This document shows positions 2,035-57,465 of a stretch of 64,000 nt of DNA, one piece after another; positions within the stretch are counted from its first letter, which is position 1, and every line of letters begins with the position of its first letter. The DNA lies in the IMG/VR virus record IMGVR_UViG_3300021400_000154, positions 46,615 through 110,614 of that record, one strand, 5' to 3'. This DNA comes from a virus. Its lineage: Duplodnaviria; Caudoviricetes. A program made the position numbers and the translations under genes. The notes below the pieces were generated by a model. That model had not been told where the DNA came from, did not search any database, and saw only the letters and a program-made list of their open reading frames with translations.

Positions 2035-2345
2035 GCCTTGACGAGGCTGTAGCGCTGGTTGCTGTCTACCTTGGCGAAGCTGATGAATCGAAAATAAACG
2101 GAATGTCGATTCCGTTCTTCAATAATGTATTGGCGGCATTAGGCAAGCGCGTTAACTACGATGCCGTCGTGAACTATGCCGGTAACTCTTTCGCGAAGGA
2201 TTCATGGAAACTGATTCAAGAGGCGAACCCGTTGGTAAAGCCGAGGAAGATCAGTTCCGGTTTTATGGATCTGTTGAACAAGGCTGCGCCGAAGTCTGAT
2301 GCTAAGACACAGCAGATGCTGAAAGAGATTGACTGGGCGAAATAA
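1498..2345 (+). CDS. Tail assembly chaperone, -1 frameshift extension (gpGT-like)
   Basis: A AAA AAC heptamer at 2001-2007. The -1 frame is open from there through track ORF 2103-2345. Confidence 0.7.
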
Positions 2346-12900: not shown

Positions 12901-15900
12901 CTACAAGCTTTGCGCGATCAACAATCATTAGCTGATACGCAGTCTGAAGAAGCAGAGCAGAGAGCTCTCGGAAAAAACAAAAAGTATCAAGCCGCAAGAG
13001 GAAAATACGATCTCGCAAGACAAGCTTACGATGCCGCGTTGAAAAACAATGATTCTGATTAGATGGCAAACGCAGCACAAGGTATGCGCGACGCCGAATA
13101 GGAAATGCAAAGAATCGCGGCAACATCTATAAGCGCGCGAGCTTCCCTCTCTGCTCTTGGGCAAACGTTTGCTAGGGTTGGCATGCAGTTCGGAAGGCGC
13201 ATATTCCAGGCAGCCATTCGTGAAGCGACTCAGTTTGTCAAAGTATATGATCAAACCATGCATCAGATTCAAGCCATAACCATGAAATCCAACCAGGAGA
13301 TGGCTACAGTCAGATCTTCTACGATAACTCAAGCTATAGGTTTAAAAACCTCTGCGACAAACGTTGCACAGGTCAAATCAGAGTTATATCGGCAAGGGTT
13401 ATCTGATTCGCAAGTTAATGACAGAACTGATTCGATTATAAAGTTTTCTGCTGTCACAGGGATGAAGGCAACGCAAGCAACAAAAGCTCTCACTACGGCG
13501 TTGCAAAGCGGACTTGTTAATAATATTCATGAGGCAATGGACGCGATGGTCGCTCTGGGCGATAGCGCAGCAACGACAGCTGAAGAAATAGCAAAAGGTA
13601 TGCAAAAATCTGCTGCGGCTGCAAAAGTTGCAGGCGTGTCTTACGGTGAACTGACATCCATGTTAACAGTTATCACCAGCAAAACTCAGCTTGGCGGCAA
13701 TCAAGCAGGCACAGCGCTTCAAACGATATTCAGCCGGATGCGCAGAGTAACAAACGAAGGTATAACCAGTGATGAAGGCGGAGAAATCACAAGCGTCAAT
13801 GATGTCGAAGAATCTCTTCAACGTGTTGGCATTTCTATGAGAACAGACGCTAACAGTTTCAGAGATACGTTGGATATCCTTCGCGATCTTGCAAAAGTTT
13901 GGAATGATTTGAATGACATACAGAAGAACAATATCATGTATAATATGGCTGGCGCAAGACAGAGCAATATGTTCTCTGCTTTAATGGAAGGATTGGCTGA
14001 TGATAATGGTAAGACATTTGATAAATATCTTGGGCTTACTGAGGATAGTGATGGGATAACTCAGAGCAAATACGAAATCGTAATATCAAACATCAATGCA
14101 GAACTCGACGAACTGAAAACCACATTCGACGGGCTTGTAGAAGCAGTCACAAACAATGGATTGTTAACGTTCTTCATCGACCTCGCAACAACCATTACTG
14201 GTTTTGTCGCAGGAGTTTCCGATGGATTAGGAGCTATCCCTTAGCTTCTCTGGGCTATTGCTGCTGTGTTAGACGTGGTGAAGATTAAAAGCGCTGCAGT
14301 GGCCGTATTCAAAGGATTGGCGAATCCTGCTACGTTAATAGGGCCGATTTTAGGCCTTCTGGCTGTTGCAGGAGTAGGCGCTTTGGGATCACACATAAGT
14401 GGATCAAGAAAAGCAACAGAACAAAATACTGAACTGAAACGACAAGCCGATTCTGACTTTCTAGAACATGCATCCAGTGTTCGTACGGATAGCATAGAAA
14501 AAGTGGAAAAAGCACTTGACAAAGTAAAGCAAATGCAAAAGATAGATGTCGATATGGAAACAGAAGAAGCCCAAAAAGCGCTGGAAGATCTCAAAAGAAG
14601 CACAAAGGCGATAGGTGGCAATATCTCTGATTGGCCAAATGCCGTAAGAGAGGCTACAAAAGCTATAAATGAAGCGAGAAAAGAAAGTGCACTATTTTTA
14701 CTCGGACTTGGGGATACTGGGGCAAAGGATCTCCAGACAAAATATAATAATAATGTTTAGACATATAATGGTGCCATCTAGTAGTCTGATTTTGAAGACG
14801 GCGGTATATTATATGGCAGATCAATTTTCCAGGGTATATCTCAAAAGGACTTAAAACCTTACTCAACACAAGACGGTAAAGGCGGCTATACTTACGAAAG
14901 CTTGATAAATGATCATTAGAAACTTGACATGAAAGCGCCTCGTAAATCTATGACTTATAGAGATGCGATGAAACAAGATTTAGAAAACATTGGTATAAAG
15001 ACAGAGGGGCTGTAGGACACAGACTTGATCGATTTGCACGGTGTATACTATTACAGTGGCCTTTCCCAAAACTTTAGGCGCGTTAAATACAACAAGAATG
15101 CAGGCAATCAAAATCGTGATAACCAGGAATATGCTTACGAATTTTTTAAACAGCTTTCTGACAACACAAATCAGCAAAATATAACCACTTCATCATTGAA
15201 ACGTGTAGAATCATGGTTTGATCTGTGGACTAAAACAGCAGGATATGAAAACTTTATGAATGCTCATGGTGGACATATAGGTTCATATACAGCAGGTGGT
15301 TCCTTTGAAGACTTTGCATCTGTTATGGCAAAACAACAATACGAAGGAGTTAGAAATGAAGTTATTGGGTTATGGGATTAGGACGAAACAAGAAACGAAA
15401 TCGCAACAAGAGCTGCTGAAGAAAATGAAATTCTGTCTAATATGGACAGCTTGTTCGTTCAGTCGCTTATGACTAACGATGATGCATATGGGCCAGCTGT
15501 AAAACTTTGGACTTAGGGTAACGAAAAGTTTAAGGATCGCATTGTTTCCGAATTTCTTGATTACGCAAAGGACCAAGGTATTACGCCGAATTATACAAAT
15601 GTTAAAGAGTGGCTAATGAAACAAATTGAAACTTATACTTCTGATGAATTCCTGCGGATGTATGGGTCTCCCGAAGACTTTGAGTATTATTATTCAGATT
15701 CAGAAGGCAATCCATTGTTTGGTGCGCATGATTTATAGCGAGAAGCAATCCTTGAGGCGTACAACGAAGAAGTTGCGCTTGCCGAGAAAAACGGTAACAC
15801 CAAACGGGTTGAGGTACTTAAAGCGCTGCAAGAAGAAGTAAGTAAGTATAATCCTTTGAAGACAAACAAAATATATACGTCATCAGGGGCGCAAGTTGGC

Positions 15901-21618: not shown

Positions 21619-24600
21619 ATGCTTCGTTACAAAAGGAACCTGATTCTTGACGTGTACGATTACAGCGGCAATAAGCAATGCACGTTGTATGACAGCACAT
21701 CAGATTTATCCGGCCAGGCTACAGACGTTGTCGTAACGATTGAGCGAAACGGCTGGAAGGAGCTGTCGTTCACCATCCCCACAACATGCGAAAGCGAGAA
21801 CGGCGGGCAGGAAGAAAACTTCCGACTGCAATACCTGATCGCTGACTATCGGATTCGCCTGAAGGATGATGATGGGATCGACTGGTTCCTGATCTCAGAA
21901 CCAAAGATAACACATAATGTTTATTCGAAGAACGTGTCTGTGTCAGCAGGGCACATTTCTCAACTGCTGAAGACGAAGAATCTTGGTCTGGAGTTCTCCG
22001 ACCATGAGGGCAATAATGTAGGAACAGCGGAAGATCTTCTGACAAAAATCCTCGATGGTACTGGATGGTCTGTCGGAAGTGTAGCCGACTTCAAAGAGAA
22101 GCGTTCCGGCGCAACCAAGATCCGCTCTATGAAAGCTTCTGCGAAGACAGGTGCTTTTAAGCTGATCTCCAACATGTGCGACCTGTTCGAGGCGAAGCCT
22201 GTTTACCATGGAGATTAGAAGACGGTAGACATTATTCCGATGAACCCGTTCTCAGAACCGGAGGATGGATCGCTGCCTGCTGTGGCGACAGGTGAATGTA
22301 TTGAGCTGCACTACGGGAAAAACGTGAAGAACGTTACGAGAACGCTGAACACAGAAAACCTCGTGACGAAGCTGTATGTCTATGGCGCTTATGGTGATGC
22401 AGTGAACGGATACTGCGGTATTGACGAGTGGCATCACAAAGAATACGTGTTGACTCCTCCAGGAGCAATCCCTGCAGGTACGCAATGCACATTCTCCGTG
22501 ACGGACGATGTCTCGGGGATCACGTATACGAGATACTTTGTGGCGAAGAACGCGATCTCTGCGTCTGCAAGGCTGATATGGTAGATGTTGGATCCTGCTT
22601 CCATGAGCTATGTATGGGATGAGGAGAACAATGCTGCCTATAGTGTGTCTGATAAGACAGATACCCATTACAACCTGATCATCAACACAGCAAATCCAAG
22701 CACAACTGCAGCAAAAAGGCCGCGCTTGATTCATCAATCCAGCAATACGGAATCTCGTGCAGGAAGCACTGCCGCAACAGCAGAGCATGGCATGAAGGTA
22801 ACTCTTAACTCACAAATCAAATATCAGTATATTTATTTCGGGCAGAGCACTAATGGGAAAGGAACCATGCAAGGACTGGAGCCTGGGCAAACATATACCA
22901 TGTCTTTCGATGCCACGTGGAAACTTGAAAGTGGGCGGGCAACGCCTGCAACAGATAACTTTGTTGTGTTTATTAACATAGACAGAGGAACAAATACATA
23001 CTCAACACTTACAAGAAAGACGATCAAAACCTTTACAACAGGAGAAGAAACATAGGACAGATGTGAATCCTTTACTTTTACTATTCCAAACGATTGCGTC
23101 AGGTGTTATATAGGAATACGTGCAGACAGTTCGACAGCCGCCAATTATGCGAAGGGTGACTTCATCGAAATCCGAAACGTCAAACTCGAAGCAGGTTCAG
23201 TTGCAACACCTTGGTGCCCATCGGAATCTGAATAGACGCTGACTGTCACGGAAACAAATGTTGTTGACAACAAGGTATCCTATCTGATGGACTTCGATTA
23301 TTACCGCAGCGTCGGGCTGTTGACGGATGAGATGCTTGACGAGGTAGGTGCTTTCCAACGCGAGATTCCTGCCCTTTTGGATACTGCGCAGACGAACGCT
23401 GCAGCGTACGCCTCCACTATCAACGATCTGTCCGAGACGATTGGAACGCCTGATTTCTGCAAGCTCTCCGCGCAGTATGATACAAGCGGAGAATACCTTG
23501 GGTTAAACTTGAACACAGGAACAGGCGGTTATCCGAAAGGTGTTATCTACAGAACGGACTATGCGCTGAAGGAATCGAAACAGTTCCAGTGGAGAACCAC
23601 GAGTAATATATACCCGAACGGAGACCCGTATGAAAACTATGCAGCGGTGGTTTACATCGTTCACACACATACGGATCCTTGCACATACGACATCGGATAT
23701 CTTCGTGCGGTTAACGATCATTTGGAACCAACAGAAGATGATCAGAAAGCACCGACAAAGCTGTCCTTGTGGCTCAAGAGTGCAAACTTCGATGATTCTC
23801 ACTCAAACACAGATCACATCTATCTGTTCAGGCAAAACAGCATCATCGGCGACCTTGGCGCGATGATGCTACAGGACGAGACGGCGGAAGATACGCTTAA
23901 AGACAGCGTAAAGAACCAAATCAAGGGTGATCGCCTCGTGTATTATACGGATCAGGCGATCACAAGAGAAAATCCTGGATTTAACTTCGTTGGATATGCC
24001 TGGGCGTGGAGGTATTACAAAGATAACTCGCAGCCATCTGAAATGTACTTCTGCGATCTTGATGCCGGAGACGTAAGCTGGCACAGGACTTTCGTTACAA
24101 AGAATCCTCCAGCGAACACATTGGGTTCTAACCAGGATTACGCCTATTGCTGGAAAGAAGGAACATTATACCGGAAGAATGGCAGCGCCTGGGAAAAACA
24201 AACAAATAAGTCTACCGTCGACGACAACTTCGGCAGGATGGTTTCCAGTTTCGGCACCGTGTACAACAGCTGCGTTGATCGCGACATGATCAGAAACGGA
24301 CACTATGAGTATTATGCAGTGGATGCCCAGGAAAACCTGCCGGTTGGCAACTACGCTATCGCAGACCCGTTTGGAGTCTACCATGCGTTTACAACGAAGG
24401 CACAAACCGATCAAGGAAAACGGATATCTTTCGACTGGACGCACGGTTGGGTGGCGATATTTAACAGCGGTACAGACCCGTAGAGTGTCGACATCACGAC
24501 TGTGATTGATGACGCTCTGACCAGTTCCCAGTACCGGTATGATTCTGTATTCGACAGCGGCGAGGATGTGCTAAACGATGCGATCTGGGAAAGCGGCTCG

Positions 24601-44382: not shown

Positions 44383-44403
44383 CCGATCATCTCCTTTTAA
44401 GTT

Positions 44404-44488
44404 CGCGGAGTACAGGATTTGAACCTGTGGTATGTCGCCATACGACGGTTTTAGAGACCGCTGCAATAAACCACTCTGCCAACTCCGC
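44404..44488 (-). tRNA. Amber suppressor tRNA (anticodon CUA) with a tRNA-Ser-type body
   Basis: GCGGAGU/ACUCCGC acceptor, G73, GCGGU-CU CUA AA-ACCGU, 5-bp variable arm GUAUG-GCGA-CAUAC, T arm ACAGG-UUCAAAU-CCUGU. Confidence 0.92.
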
Positions 44489-44491
44489 ACA

Positions 44492-44576
44492 CGCGGCGTG
44501 GAGGATTCGAACCTCCGGAATCTTTCGATTCGACGATTTTCAAGACCGTAGCCTTCAGCCTCTCGGCCAACGCCGC
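44492..44576 (-). tRNA. trnS: tRNA-Ser(UGA)
   Basis: Cloverleaf with CU UGA AA loop, long variable arm and G73. Confidence 0.93.
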
Positions 44577-44580
44577 ATAG

Positions 44581-45471: not shown

Positions 45472-46068
45472 TCAGAAAATCAGAGGTCCTCTGATCAGCA
45501 AGCATTGCAGCCTTCGCCATACTTCCAATACCCTTCACACATGTTCGGTCACCGTGAAACCAGAGGCTGAGCCACAGGTAGCGACCCTGTAACTTCTCTG
45601 GCCTACCCAAAGGGACAAGCACGGAGGCGATTGACTACGCCTAAGTTTCAGCCAAACCATTCAGCAATAATCATATTATTATTAGTTAATGTCGCGTTGG
45701 CCTACTCCTACCCCAAACCTTACTCACAGGACATTTCTGCCCCTCCCGACACCGGTCGCGTCTTGGTGGCATTTCCAGAGTACCGACAGTCGCCAGCTAA
45801 CGTCTTTTCTGGATTCGTGGGCTGGTTGGGCCCCTTCTATTGTGACGCCGTAAGGAATGGTACCTTTGTGTGCGAATACGAAAGCGCGCAACCTTATCAT
45901 TGGGCTTTGCTTTCAACCCTATCGCTGGCAGTTACCTGCTTCGCGTCCCCTCTTGCGAAAGTATCCCATCGCGAGAGACTGGATGATGTACGGTCGCCCC
46001 AAGCAGTGTGGTTGGCACCTCTGCACTTGGGTCAATGCTTGCTGATCAGAAGACCTCTGATCTTTTGA
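45472..46068 (-). ncRNA. Large structured ncRNA (~600 nt), ROOL-like candidate
   Basis: ~36-bp terminal stem (45472-45507 with 46033-46068) in which two mismatches become G.U pairs on the - strand. Many internal hairpins, no credible ORF, located in the tRNA cluster. Confidence 0.6.
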
Positions 46069-47312: not shown

Positions 47313-47384
47313 CTGGGGACAGTGGAGTCGAACCACTACTGTTTGAGTCAAAGTCAAATGTACTTGCCGTTATACGAGTCCCCA
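47313..47384 (-). tRNA. trnQ: tRNA-Gln(UUG)
   Basis: U1-A72; UUUGA-CU UUG AC-UCAAA; G73. Confidence 0.92.
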
Positions 47385-47476: not shown

Positions 47477-47671
47477 TTACCACACAGGATCGTAGTCGCC
47501 TACGTCAGAATCAGGGTCAATGCTCAGCTTGGCTTCGATAAAATCGGCCACGGCAGACTCCACAGCGTCGTGGAGAATGGGAACCAGTCTCTCCAGATCG
47601 CTTTTCGTCTTCGCGTACCGCTCCAGATAGCTGTCCAACATGATTTCAATTTCGAGAACGTCGCCGTTCAA
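47477..47671 (-). CDS. Hypothetical acidic protein
   Basis: AAGGAG RBS followed by TTG start. Confidence 0.5.
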   Translation of the reverse strand: MNGDVLEIEIMLDSYLERYAKTKSDLERLVPILHDAVESAVADFIEAKLSIDPDSDVGDYDPVW

Positions 47672-48173
47672 TGGAACCACTCCTTTTTTTCTTTCCATTA
47701 CGTTCATTTTCGAGGTTGCGGATTTTGTCACCGTTCACCCTACCGTATTCCGCGATTAAAACAGCTTCAGCCATGCCGTCTGAAGGCTTTTTGCAGCGAG
47801 AAGTCGGCAAAAGAGAGAGTTCTGGATGCATTTCCTGGCATTTTTCAATGGATTTTTGCTTGTCCGAGCCCAAATCATAGGCTTTTTTCCATTTTTGAGG
47901 CGGTACAAGCAGGGTTTCAATGCCAAATGCTGCCAAAACTCCCTCGATGAAGCCCGCAGACTTGCCGAAGTTGAACATGGAGACCACGCCTTGTCCCGGC
48001 ATGGCTCCAACCTTCTCAACTACGGCATAAATCTGCTCTTCGTCGTGATTTTCGGCGATTTTTCGCATCTCCTGAACGAAAACCTGGTTATCCCATGGGA
48101 AAACCTATGCCCGGGTCTCCCCAAGAATCGCAAAAGCACCCTTCTGACCGGGATCAATGCCGATAACGGTCAT
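47646..48173 (-). CDS. RuvC-like Holliday junction resolvase; TAG at 48105-48107 read through
   Basis: VIGIDPGQKGAFA lies upstream of the TAG, in frame with VVEKV...GVVSMFNFG...PQKWKK...DGMAEAVLIA. Confidence 0.82.
47688..47722 (-). repeat. 35-bp element, copy 1 (putative phage promoter/operator)
   Basis: TCCGCAACCTCGAAAATGAACGTAATGGAAAGAAA, identical to 52739-52773 and directly upstream of an RBS. Confidence 0.75.
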
Positions 48174-48433
48174 GATTCGGCCTCCTTTTCCAGTCTTGCG
48201 ATCTCGCGGTCCAGATACCAGCGAGCTTTCTTCAGATCTTCGAGAGCGTCGAGCTTGTGGCCCGCCCTGGTAACGTATTTGACCACGTTACCAAGGCAGA
48301 AGCCCAGCTTCTTGTCCTCAATGAAGTCGATCGTCTCGATTTTGCCGTAGGTGTAATGGGCGGGATGGTTCACGGGGTCGTTCTGGACAACAGTGTCGTC
48401 CTGACGCGGGACAATAGCTGTAATCATGCTCAA
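48170..48433 (-). CDS. DUF3310-family protein
   Basis: DPVNHPAHY...IETIDFI...GFCLGNVVKY..RAG.K...EDLKKARWYL. Confidence 0.85.
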   Translation of the reverse strand: MSMITAIVPRQDDTVVQNDPVNHPAHYTYGKIETIDFIEDKKLGFCLGNVVKYVTRAGHKLDALEDLKKARWYLDREIARLEKEAES

Positions 48434-49367: not shown

Positions 49368-49766
49368 TCAAAATAGCGTGCATTCAGCACTGTCGATGTA
49401 GGGATTGGCCGGATTCTGGATCCAGTTGTCCCACTCTTCGTTGTATCCTTGTTGACCGTTCTTGTAGTTATCAGGGCTGTGATATTCGCCATCCGGTGTG
49501 ATATAAGCAGACGGGCGAAGCTTAATGGCTCCGCCCGCTGCGTTCATATCATCATAGCTCATCTGGTTTTTGCGATAGTGCCCTGTGCTATCGGGATTCT
49601 CTCCTGACAAAGGCTTAAAATACGTGTCTCCGGCGCGAACCAGGTACCAGTCATACTTGGCGTCCTTACAAACAGGACTGTTTTCCAGGTATTTATCCAG
49701 CAAAGGTTCCGCTTCATGAGGTTCGTCATGAAAGACGGATACAATCTTGTGATTCAACGCCTCCAC
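49368..49766 (-). CDS. Shorter paralog of the 48672-49355 protein
   Basis: AKYDWY, AYITPDGEYHSP, NPYI. Confidence 0.6.
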   Translation of the reverse strand: MEALNHKIVSVFHDEPHEAEPLLDKYLENSPVCKDAKYDWYLVRAGDTYFKPLSGENPDSTGHYRKNQMSYDDMNAAGGAIKLRPSAYITPDGEYHSPDNYKNGQQGYNEEWDNWIQNPANPYIDSAECTLF

Positions 49767-57013: not shown

Positions 57014-57465
57014 TCGTCAGACACCTCCTCGTCATCAAGGACGATGTCTTCGTCTTCCTCATCCTCCGCAAGCGTGTCTGCGATAATGTCATCGATGTTC
57101 TCCGCCTTGGCTTTAACAAGTTCCTTGTCTGGGCCGATGGCTTCAACGTCTGCGATGTACAGCCTGACGTTGTTACCCTTCGGAATAGTCGTGCTGTCTG
57201 TGCCTTTCGCATCTGATTTTGCGATGTAGCTCAACAGTCTGGCCATGGTATAGCAGGAAGCGACCACTGTTCCGTTGTCCATCAGGAGCACGGTCTTGGC
57301 GGCGCGCCTGCCAGCAGCATTAACGAGAGTTCCTGCACGTCTCTCTTCGAGCAGGATCTTTTTCGCCTGATAGAACTTTGCTGACATGATGGCAGTGACT
57401 CGTGTCGCGCATATCTACATGCTAGGCGATACAGGGATAAACTTTATGGGCAGCATGTATCCCAT
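57010..57465 (-). CDS. RemA/DUF370-like protein; TAG at 57415-57417 read through
   Basis: KFIPVSPSM*ICATRVTAIMS...AKKILLEERRAGTLVNAAGRRAAKTVLLMDNGTVVAS matches the RemA pattern. Acidic C-terminal tail. Confidence 0.65.

Follow-up and report, generated by a model that had tools for sequence, protein, structure and literature searches.

TAG is very probably a serine codon in this phage, read by a tRNA-Ser derivative that carries a CUA anticodon; we put the probability of this reading at roughly 0.88. The sequence evidence strongly supports it on two sides, the residues found at homologous positions in relatives and the build of the tRNA. The initial annotation, made from the letters of a 64,000-nucleotide stretch of the genome (the window, to which coordinates refer unless another record or the genome is named), had listed five options without choosing among them: serine, ambiguous Ser/Gln decoding, a code in transition, charging of a Ser-type body by GlnRS, and a separate tRNA-Gln(CUA) outside the window. 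The first is the one favoured by both sides of the evidence, and the last is excluded.

A complete genome with TAG as a sense codon

The window belongs to a single contig of 110,614 bp, the first 108 bases of which are repeated at its end; IMG/VR assigns it direct terminal repeats and a completeness of 100%. The whole genome encodes eight tRNAs, only one of them with a CUA anticodon. A scan of the rest of the genome for other CUA tRNAs, synthetases and release factors came back empty: we found no second CUA tRNA in the complete 110.6-kb sequence, no gene in the genome with an RF-1 domain (class-I release factor, PF00472), and none with a class II aminoacyl-tRNA synthetase core domain (SerRS-type synthetase, PF00587). 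A separate tRNA-Gln(CUA) is thereby ruled out for the phage.

With TAG read through, a greedy set of open reading frames contains 152 in-frame TAGs, that is, roughly 150. Some calls in this set lie on the wrong strand, such as the plus-strand frame 47826-48356 over the real RuvC gene (minus strand), and inference was therefore limited to TAGs inside alignments to relatives. The TAGs are concentrated in virion and late genes, and the long replication-type ORFs (945, 1066, 629, 529 and 423 aa) have none. The largest single user of the suppressor tRNA is the giant tape-measure-like ORF (Table 1). Standard-code relatives carry the same giant ORF uninterrupted (4565-7242 aa, code 11); since this frame holds 57 TAGs and neither TAA nor TGA, TAG is a sense codon here. 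In the relatives, the columns of the TAGs of the giant ORF are mostly S, A or T. A tandem TAG-TAG lies inside the same ORF (14779-14784).

A few TAGs, at genome positions 3176, 4295 and 48680 (the last at window 2066-2068) and at window 49374-49376, stand opposite stop codons of standard-code relatives, as was seen for three TAGs, or where homology ends. TAG may thus still mark the end of some genes; at least one of these cases is probably an antisense artefact.

Virion genes (602-1378, and the P0007 locus) match the Pfam families YomU_Tube, YonB and YomX_C, which are named after proteins of Bacillus phage SPbeta, and by these matches the phage appears to belong to a family with an SPbeta-like virion module. 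Its DNA is present in animal gut metagenomes. The tRNA cluster also contains a full-length ROOL RNA (RF03087, 277.9 bits, model positions 1-574) at 45489-46054 on the minus strand. In a metatranscriptome of what is probably the source sample, some contigs are exact matches to the ROOL RNA and to ORFs close by; none is specific to tRNA(CUA), and these contigs are uninformative on its expression. A scan for promoters and terminators around the tRNA cluster gave nothing above chance.

Table 1. Positions of the tRNA genes, the giant ORF and individual TAG codons (asterisk in a peptide: TAG). Positions are those of the window, except where a record is prefixed.
Feature	Position	Strand	Remarks
tRNA(CUA), amber suppressor, class II Ser-type body	44404-44488	minus	ARAGORN; Rfam tRNA model, 58.4 bits
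tRNA-Ser(UGA)	44492-44576	minus	ARAGORN; Rfam general tRNA model, 52.2 bits
tRNA-Gln(UUG), class I	47314-47383	minus	ARAGORN; Rfam
Giant tape-measure-like ORF, 5479 aa	3916-20355	plus	57 in-frame TAGs, no TAA or TGA
TAG, tail tube paralog 2, aa 56 (GW*LYP)	767-769	plus	Ser-invariant column; Ser in 9/9 standard-code relatives
TAG, Tal (tail-associated lysin/fibre protein), aa 200	22216-22218	plus	T 47, S 29, E 15, D 8, N 6, G 6, A 4; no Gln
TAG, Tal, aa 322 (IW*MLD)	22582-22584	plus	Ser-invariant column; Ser in 3/3 relatives
TAG, RuvC-like resolvase (47646-48173, minus), aa 23	48105-48107	minus	hypervariable column: F, E, R, K, Y, Q
TAG, 151-aa protein, aa 17	57415-57417	minus	Ser in 3/3 standard-code relatives
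Compact tRNA(CUA) with A73, sister lineage	G008:50157-50236		D loop as in G008's own tRNA(CAA)

A serine-type tRNA with a CUA anticodon

ARAGORN predicts seven tRNAs within the window, every one on the minus strand. Two of them, tRNA(CUA) and tRNA-Ser(UGA), are separated by 3 nt when bounded by Rfam; the ARAGORN bounds are 44403-44489 and 44491-44577, respectively. tRNA(CUA) has a 7-bp acceptor stem (GCGGAGU), G73 and the anticodon loop CUCUAAA, and CCA is not encoded. The two genes have in common the 7-bp acceptor stem with its G1-C2-G3 start, G73, a large loop on a short D stem, A36-A37-A38 at the end of the anticodon loop, and a variable arm built as C, 5 bp, GNRA, 5 bp, C (GUAUG-GCGA-CAUAC in tRNA(CUA), GAAUC-GAAA-GAUUC in tRNA-Ser(UGA)); outside anticodon and variable arm they are 76% identical. 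The adjacency and common architecture described in the initial annotation are thus upheld by ARAGORN, by Rfam and by reading the minus strand. Its two other statements about the tRNAs also hold: the tRNA-Gln of the phage is unconverted and keeps the anticodon UUG, and tRNA(CUA) lacks U1-A72, its first pair being G1:C72. The base 5' of each class II tRNA (44489 and 44577) can pair with G73 as U-G, which is why ARAGORN draws an 8-bp acceptor stem with an optional U-1:G73 pair; in the CUA tRNA of the related phage G003, the corresponding base (G003:36247) can pair with G73 as C-G.

Homologous CUA tRNAs were found in the related phages L004, L005, L007 and G003. In an alignment of six sequences (four CUA tRNAs and two tRNA-Ser(UGA) genes), standard pairs fill 97.4% of the cells of the class II cloverleaf, and changes on both sides occur at nine pairs, among them four of the five pairs of the variable arm. 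Pairing and covariation lie far above every shuffle and every slid register of this alignment, and the covarying pairs of the variable arm indicate that the long arm, the element read by SerRS, is under selection. G73 (column 85) is invariant across the alignment, and columns 11-25, which correspond to C11:G24 in the D stem, are C-G in 6/6 sequences. G2:C71 is an identity element of the E. coli SerRS; here the second acceptor pair is C2:G71, in tRNA(CUA) and likewise in the adjacent tRNA-Ser(UGA), so that the departure from the E. coli serine set is common to the phage's own serine tRNA.

When anticodon and variable arm are set aside, the identity of the G003 tRNA-Ser(UGA) is 84-93% with the CUA tRNAs and 79% with the tRNA-Ser(UGA) of this phage. 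As the G003 gene is nearer to the former than to the latter, the CUA tRNA belongs to the phage tRNA-Ser lineage. Consistently, when 50,697 annotated phage records were searched by blastn, every annotated one among the matches listed was a tRNA-Ser.

G73 sets tRNA-Ser apart from the class II Leu and Tyr tRNAs, which have A73; in the sequence of tRNA(CUA), an Ala, Leu, Tyr or Sec identity is made unlikely by G3:C70, G73 and the D arm. Other tRNA classes were considered and rejected. A tRNA-Gln body does not fit the long variable arm and G1:C72, given that class I calls for a short variable loop and U1:A72 or a weak first pair. The tRNA-Pyl label given by ARAGORN comes from the anticodon alone; tRNA(CUA) folds as a class II tRNA whose D loop has 9 nt, unlike the compact Pyl type with its 3-nt variable loop and small D loop. 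tRNA-Sec has an 8/5 acceptor/T-arm geometry, a 6-bp D stem and the anticodon UCA; the Rfam general tRNA model fits tRNA(CUA) end to end, with a 7/5 geometry and a D stem of 3-4 bp.

Bacterial SerRS reads the long variable arm together with the acceptor/discriminator region and ignores the anticodon. Since tRNA(CUA) has its recognition elements in common with tRNA-Ser(UGA), the host SerRS should charge it as it does tRNA-Ser(UGA). The charged tRNA would then compete with the host RF1, and serine would be inserted at the about 150 in-frame TAGs. Given the concentration of TAGs in virion and late genes, the full-length late proteins would depend on the tRNA and would be made only once it is present, which may give it a role in timing.

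What TAG aligns with in relatives

We collected 30 related IMG/VR loci through the major capsid protein and fetched 10 parent records whole; a search for related loci with the Tal protein as query returned none. Seven relatives, complete or large, use the standard code (G002, G004, G005, G006, G007, G009 and G010), and no CUA tRNA was found in any of the seven. G003 is recoded like this phage (G000) and has the same adjacent pair of CUA and Ser(UGA) tRNAs, and G001, L004, L005, L007 and L025 are recoded fragments from the same clade. Because the TAG-bearing proteins have hardly any Pfam coverage, these relatives were used in place of Pfam-based (Codetta-style) inference. Proteins with X at TAG were compared with the standard-code relatives by tblastn; a position was retained if it was free of gaps and at least 5 of its 16 flanking residues were identical. 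These alignments also supplied an empirical table listing, for each of the 20 amino acids, the residues found opposite it, and the TAG columns were scored under each amino acid, every column with a weight of one.

Serine scored best in this phage (33 TAG columns), followed by Thr (-8.5 lnL), Ala (-10.2), Asn (-18.9) and Gln (-20.0). It was also best in G003 (21 TAG columns; Gln -11.0 lnL) and in G001, L004, L005 and L025 (5-11 TAG columns each). With this phage and G003 joined, Ser is ahead of Gln by 31 lnL. As a control, resamples of equal size were drawn from true S, Q, A, T, K or E codons, and 300/300 received the correct call; the difference between the Ser and Gln scores was -39 ± 8 in true-Gln sets, in no case above -20, and +36 ± 7 in true-Ser sets. 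At +20, the TAG columns are less Ser-like than true Ser codons (mean +36); about 17% of them are Gln- or Lys-like, and in G003 one TAG stands in an Asp-invariant column.

With Ala and Thr as runners-up in this test, TAG could also encode one of these small residues, or a residue derived from serine on the tRNA. However, no control set of true Ala or Thr codons was miscalled Ser, and the tRNA has G3:C70 in place of G3:U70, the identity element of AlaRS, while ThrRS reads the anticodon. Neither the D arm nor the 7/5 acceptor/T-arm geometry resembles that of tRNA-Sec, and the searches for PF00472 and PF00587 were empty. We consider this the least probable of the alternatives, with hardly any weight.

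Individual sites are in line with serine. Among the four TAGs named in the initial annotation for alignment with homologs, those at 767 and 22582 align with Ser, whereas the TAGs in RuvC (48105; a hypervariable column) and in the holin (35440; V, V and K in three relatives) are uninformative. Position 83 of the major capsid protein is Ser or Ala in 19 relatives. In a search of 5.8 billion proteins, 118 homologs cover TAG 767; of these, 114 have Ser in this column and four have Gln, the four being close relatives with 63-91% identity. For one of the four (P0004), the encoding contig gives the database protein only "with_TAG=Q", so the Gln there is a code-15 gene call and not biology; the other three are probably the same kind of call. 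At TAG 22582, 119 of the 120 homologs have Ser, and the lone Gln belongs to the closest relative (P0124); P0124 and P0008, the latter a bearer of the tail-tube Gln, have matching longest contigs (37,811 bp). All five Gln entries at the two sites thus come from close relatives, one of which (P0004) was checked. Gln is found at DNA TAG positions in the public predictions for L101:2938-3609, P0004, P0007, P0008, P0035 and P0124.

These Ser-invariant columns contradict a reading of TAG as glutamine (code 15), in which decoding would rely on a host or unseen tRNA-Gln(CUA) or on charging by GlnRS, and the Ser scaffold would be irrelevant. Such a reading would agree with published phage surveys, which give only TAG-to-Gln, and with the few columns that are Gln in relatives, for instance aa 35 of genome 44709-45503; it scores 20 lnL below Ser in this phage and 11 lnL below in G003, far outside the true-Gln range, and the complete genome has no second CUA tRNA. 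We regard it as very improbable.

The initial annotation had judged that most TAG contexts look like Gln, at odds with the Ser scaffold of the tRNA. This judgement is not supported. The six peptide contexts that it quoted are present (TAGs 9934, 11011, 11875, 767, 22582 and 6148), and the Gln-rich ones all lie within the Q/E/K/A-rich coiled coil of the giant protein. In the giant ORF, the residues flanking the 57 TAGs are 5.3% Q and 6.7% S, against 6.2% and 7.1% around Ser codons and 8.5% and 5.4% around Gln codons; the flanks resemble those of Ser codons, and the homolog columns are strongly Ser. The contrast between a Ser scaffold and Gln contexts is an artefact that arises when a coiled coil rich in Gln is judged by eye.

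Within the recoded clade, the partners of TAG in the alignments are TAG (85), Ser codons (63), Ala (27), Gln (21) and Lys (13). The Ser codons exchanged with TAG are mainly TCT, TCC and AGC, which are two to three mutations off, and this points to selection on the amino acid instead of mutational proximity. Opposite TAG, the Gln codons are 19 CAG to 2 CAA and the Lys codons 11 AAG to 2 AAA, while late genes use CAA and CAG about evenly (325:308). CAG and AAG are one-step neighbours of TAG, and the pattern is therefore that expected from recent point mutations at tolerant sites.

This bears on the possibility that decoding is ambiguous, with SerRS charging one part of tRNA(CUA) and GlnRS, which recognizes C34 and U35, another, and with a mixture of Ser and Gln at TAG. 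GlnRS mischarges some amber suppressors, and a Ser/Gln mixture does describe the columns slightly better than pure Ser (f(Ser) = 0.83, range 0.61-0.99; gain 2.2 lnL). Three Clostridia or Clostridiales MAGs, genomes of the candidate host clade, contain capsid relatives, and a full GlnRS is encoded in 3/3, so mischarging is not to be dismissed for want of the enzyme; it is disfavoured by the outcome of the columns. The Lys-like excess is just as large (a Ser/Lys mixture gains 3.0 lnL), with no Lys charging proposed, and the bias towards CAG and AAG is what recent point mutations would give. Moreover, TAG occupies two Ser-invariant columns in which no real sense codon contributes Gln, and G1-C72 and the long variable arm are at odds with the GlnRS identity set. 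Neither ambiguous decoding nor GlnRS charging, both suggested in the initial annotation, is needed to account for the data, and we consider a Ser/Gln mixture unlikely.

Sister lineages and known systems

The same pipeline gives a different answer outside the serine clade. In L096 (24 columns), Leu scored best, ahead of Met (-20 lnL), Ser (-45) and Gln (-51); example genes are L096:8318-9976 and L096:9992-11536. L095, L028, L029 and G008 (locus L031) were called Leu too. That one method calls Leu for a sister clade shows that it has no bias towards Ser. The nearest annotated relatives of the compact tRNA(CUA) of G008 (Table 1) are tRNA-Leu genes of T5-like phages. In the capsid tree, the Ser clade forms one group nested among standard-code phages, and the standard-code loci L093 and L094 fall among the Leu lineages. 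Two more loci, L097 and L030, are recoded and have too few informative TAG columns for a call (Q, K or M in L097, Y in L030); the tRNA(CUA) of L097 (L097:5857-5933) has the acceptor stem GCCGCCG, as in the tRNA(CAA) of G008. It seems likely that this SPbeta-like family of gut and rumen phages of about 100 kb comprises standard-code members, a clade with TAG as Ser and members with TAG as Leu, that capture of the codon has been recurrent, and that the amino acid is set by anticodon-blind synthetases (SerRS, LeuRS) and not by an affinity for Gln.

Phages thus have no single fixed meaning for a captured stop codon. This has practical consequences, since annotation tools for phages offer only TAG=Gln for amber recoding, and we know of no NCBI table with TAG=Ser. 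TAG=Q calls applied to this genome would misplace Gln at about 150 positions, and code-15 callers do put Gln at Ser-invariant sites, as in the one database protein checked (P0004), whose phage almost certainly uses Ser. Complete relatives with the standard code, with TAG=Ser and with TAG=Leu make a tractable natural system for the study of viral code change on a standard-code host. Natural amber suppressors of Ser and Leu type that use host synthetases may also interest genetic-code engineering.

One known counterpart is supD (Su1) of E. coli, a tRNA-Ser with a CUA anticodon that inserts Ser at UAG, as SerRS ignores the anticodon. The phage tRNA is its natural counterpart, with the same class II tRNA-Ser body and the anticodon changed to CUA. 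However, supD is a suppressor of laboratory or spontaneous origin, and its cell keeps UAG as a stop, whereas the phage tRNA is a conserved gene that serves about 150 fixed TAGs and has C2:G71. The tRNA-Ser(CAG) of the Candida CTG clade and the allo-tRNAs (Mukai et al. 2017, PMC5389517) likewise combine Ser bodies with non-Ser anticodons and depend on an anticodon-blind SerRS, but they read sense codons or have an 8/4 or 9/3 geometry, whereas the phage tRNA has the canonical 7/5 geometry and reads a stop codon.

Among phages, there is a parallel in organization with the code-15 gut phages (crAss-like, Lak, Garnet and Topaz, among others), which also encode a tRNA(CUA) (Sup-CTA), have TAG in late and structural genes, keep long replication genes free of TAG and infect standard-code hosts. 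In those phages TAG is Gln, as validated by metaproteomics (PMC9523058). In-frame TAGs in essential genes and a phage tRNA(CUA) are found here as well; in contrast, TAG aligns with Ser and not with Gln, the tRNA is of Ser type, and neither a phage release factor nor a phage synthetase was found in the genome. The preprint of Borges et al. gives only TAG-to-Gln and TGA-to-Trp as phage codes that differ from that of the host, and later phage annotation papers assume Gln for TAG.

A 2015 review (PMC4695839) credits Ivanova et al. 2014 (Science 344:909) with phages in which UAG is reassigned to Ser and which have a Ser-tRNA(CUA). Going by the account in that review, the reassignment and the kind of tRNA are the same as here, and those phages also encode RF2, which is absent from the present genome. 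Full-text literature searches returned no other phage reports of TAG as Ser or Leu. The phage described here is of a rarely reported kind. Set against the phages of Ivanova et al., its lineage, with an SPbeta-like virion module of YomU/YonB type, has both standard-code and TAG=Leu sisters, and the added value of the present case is the presence of these relatives within one family.
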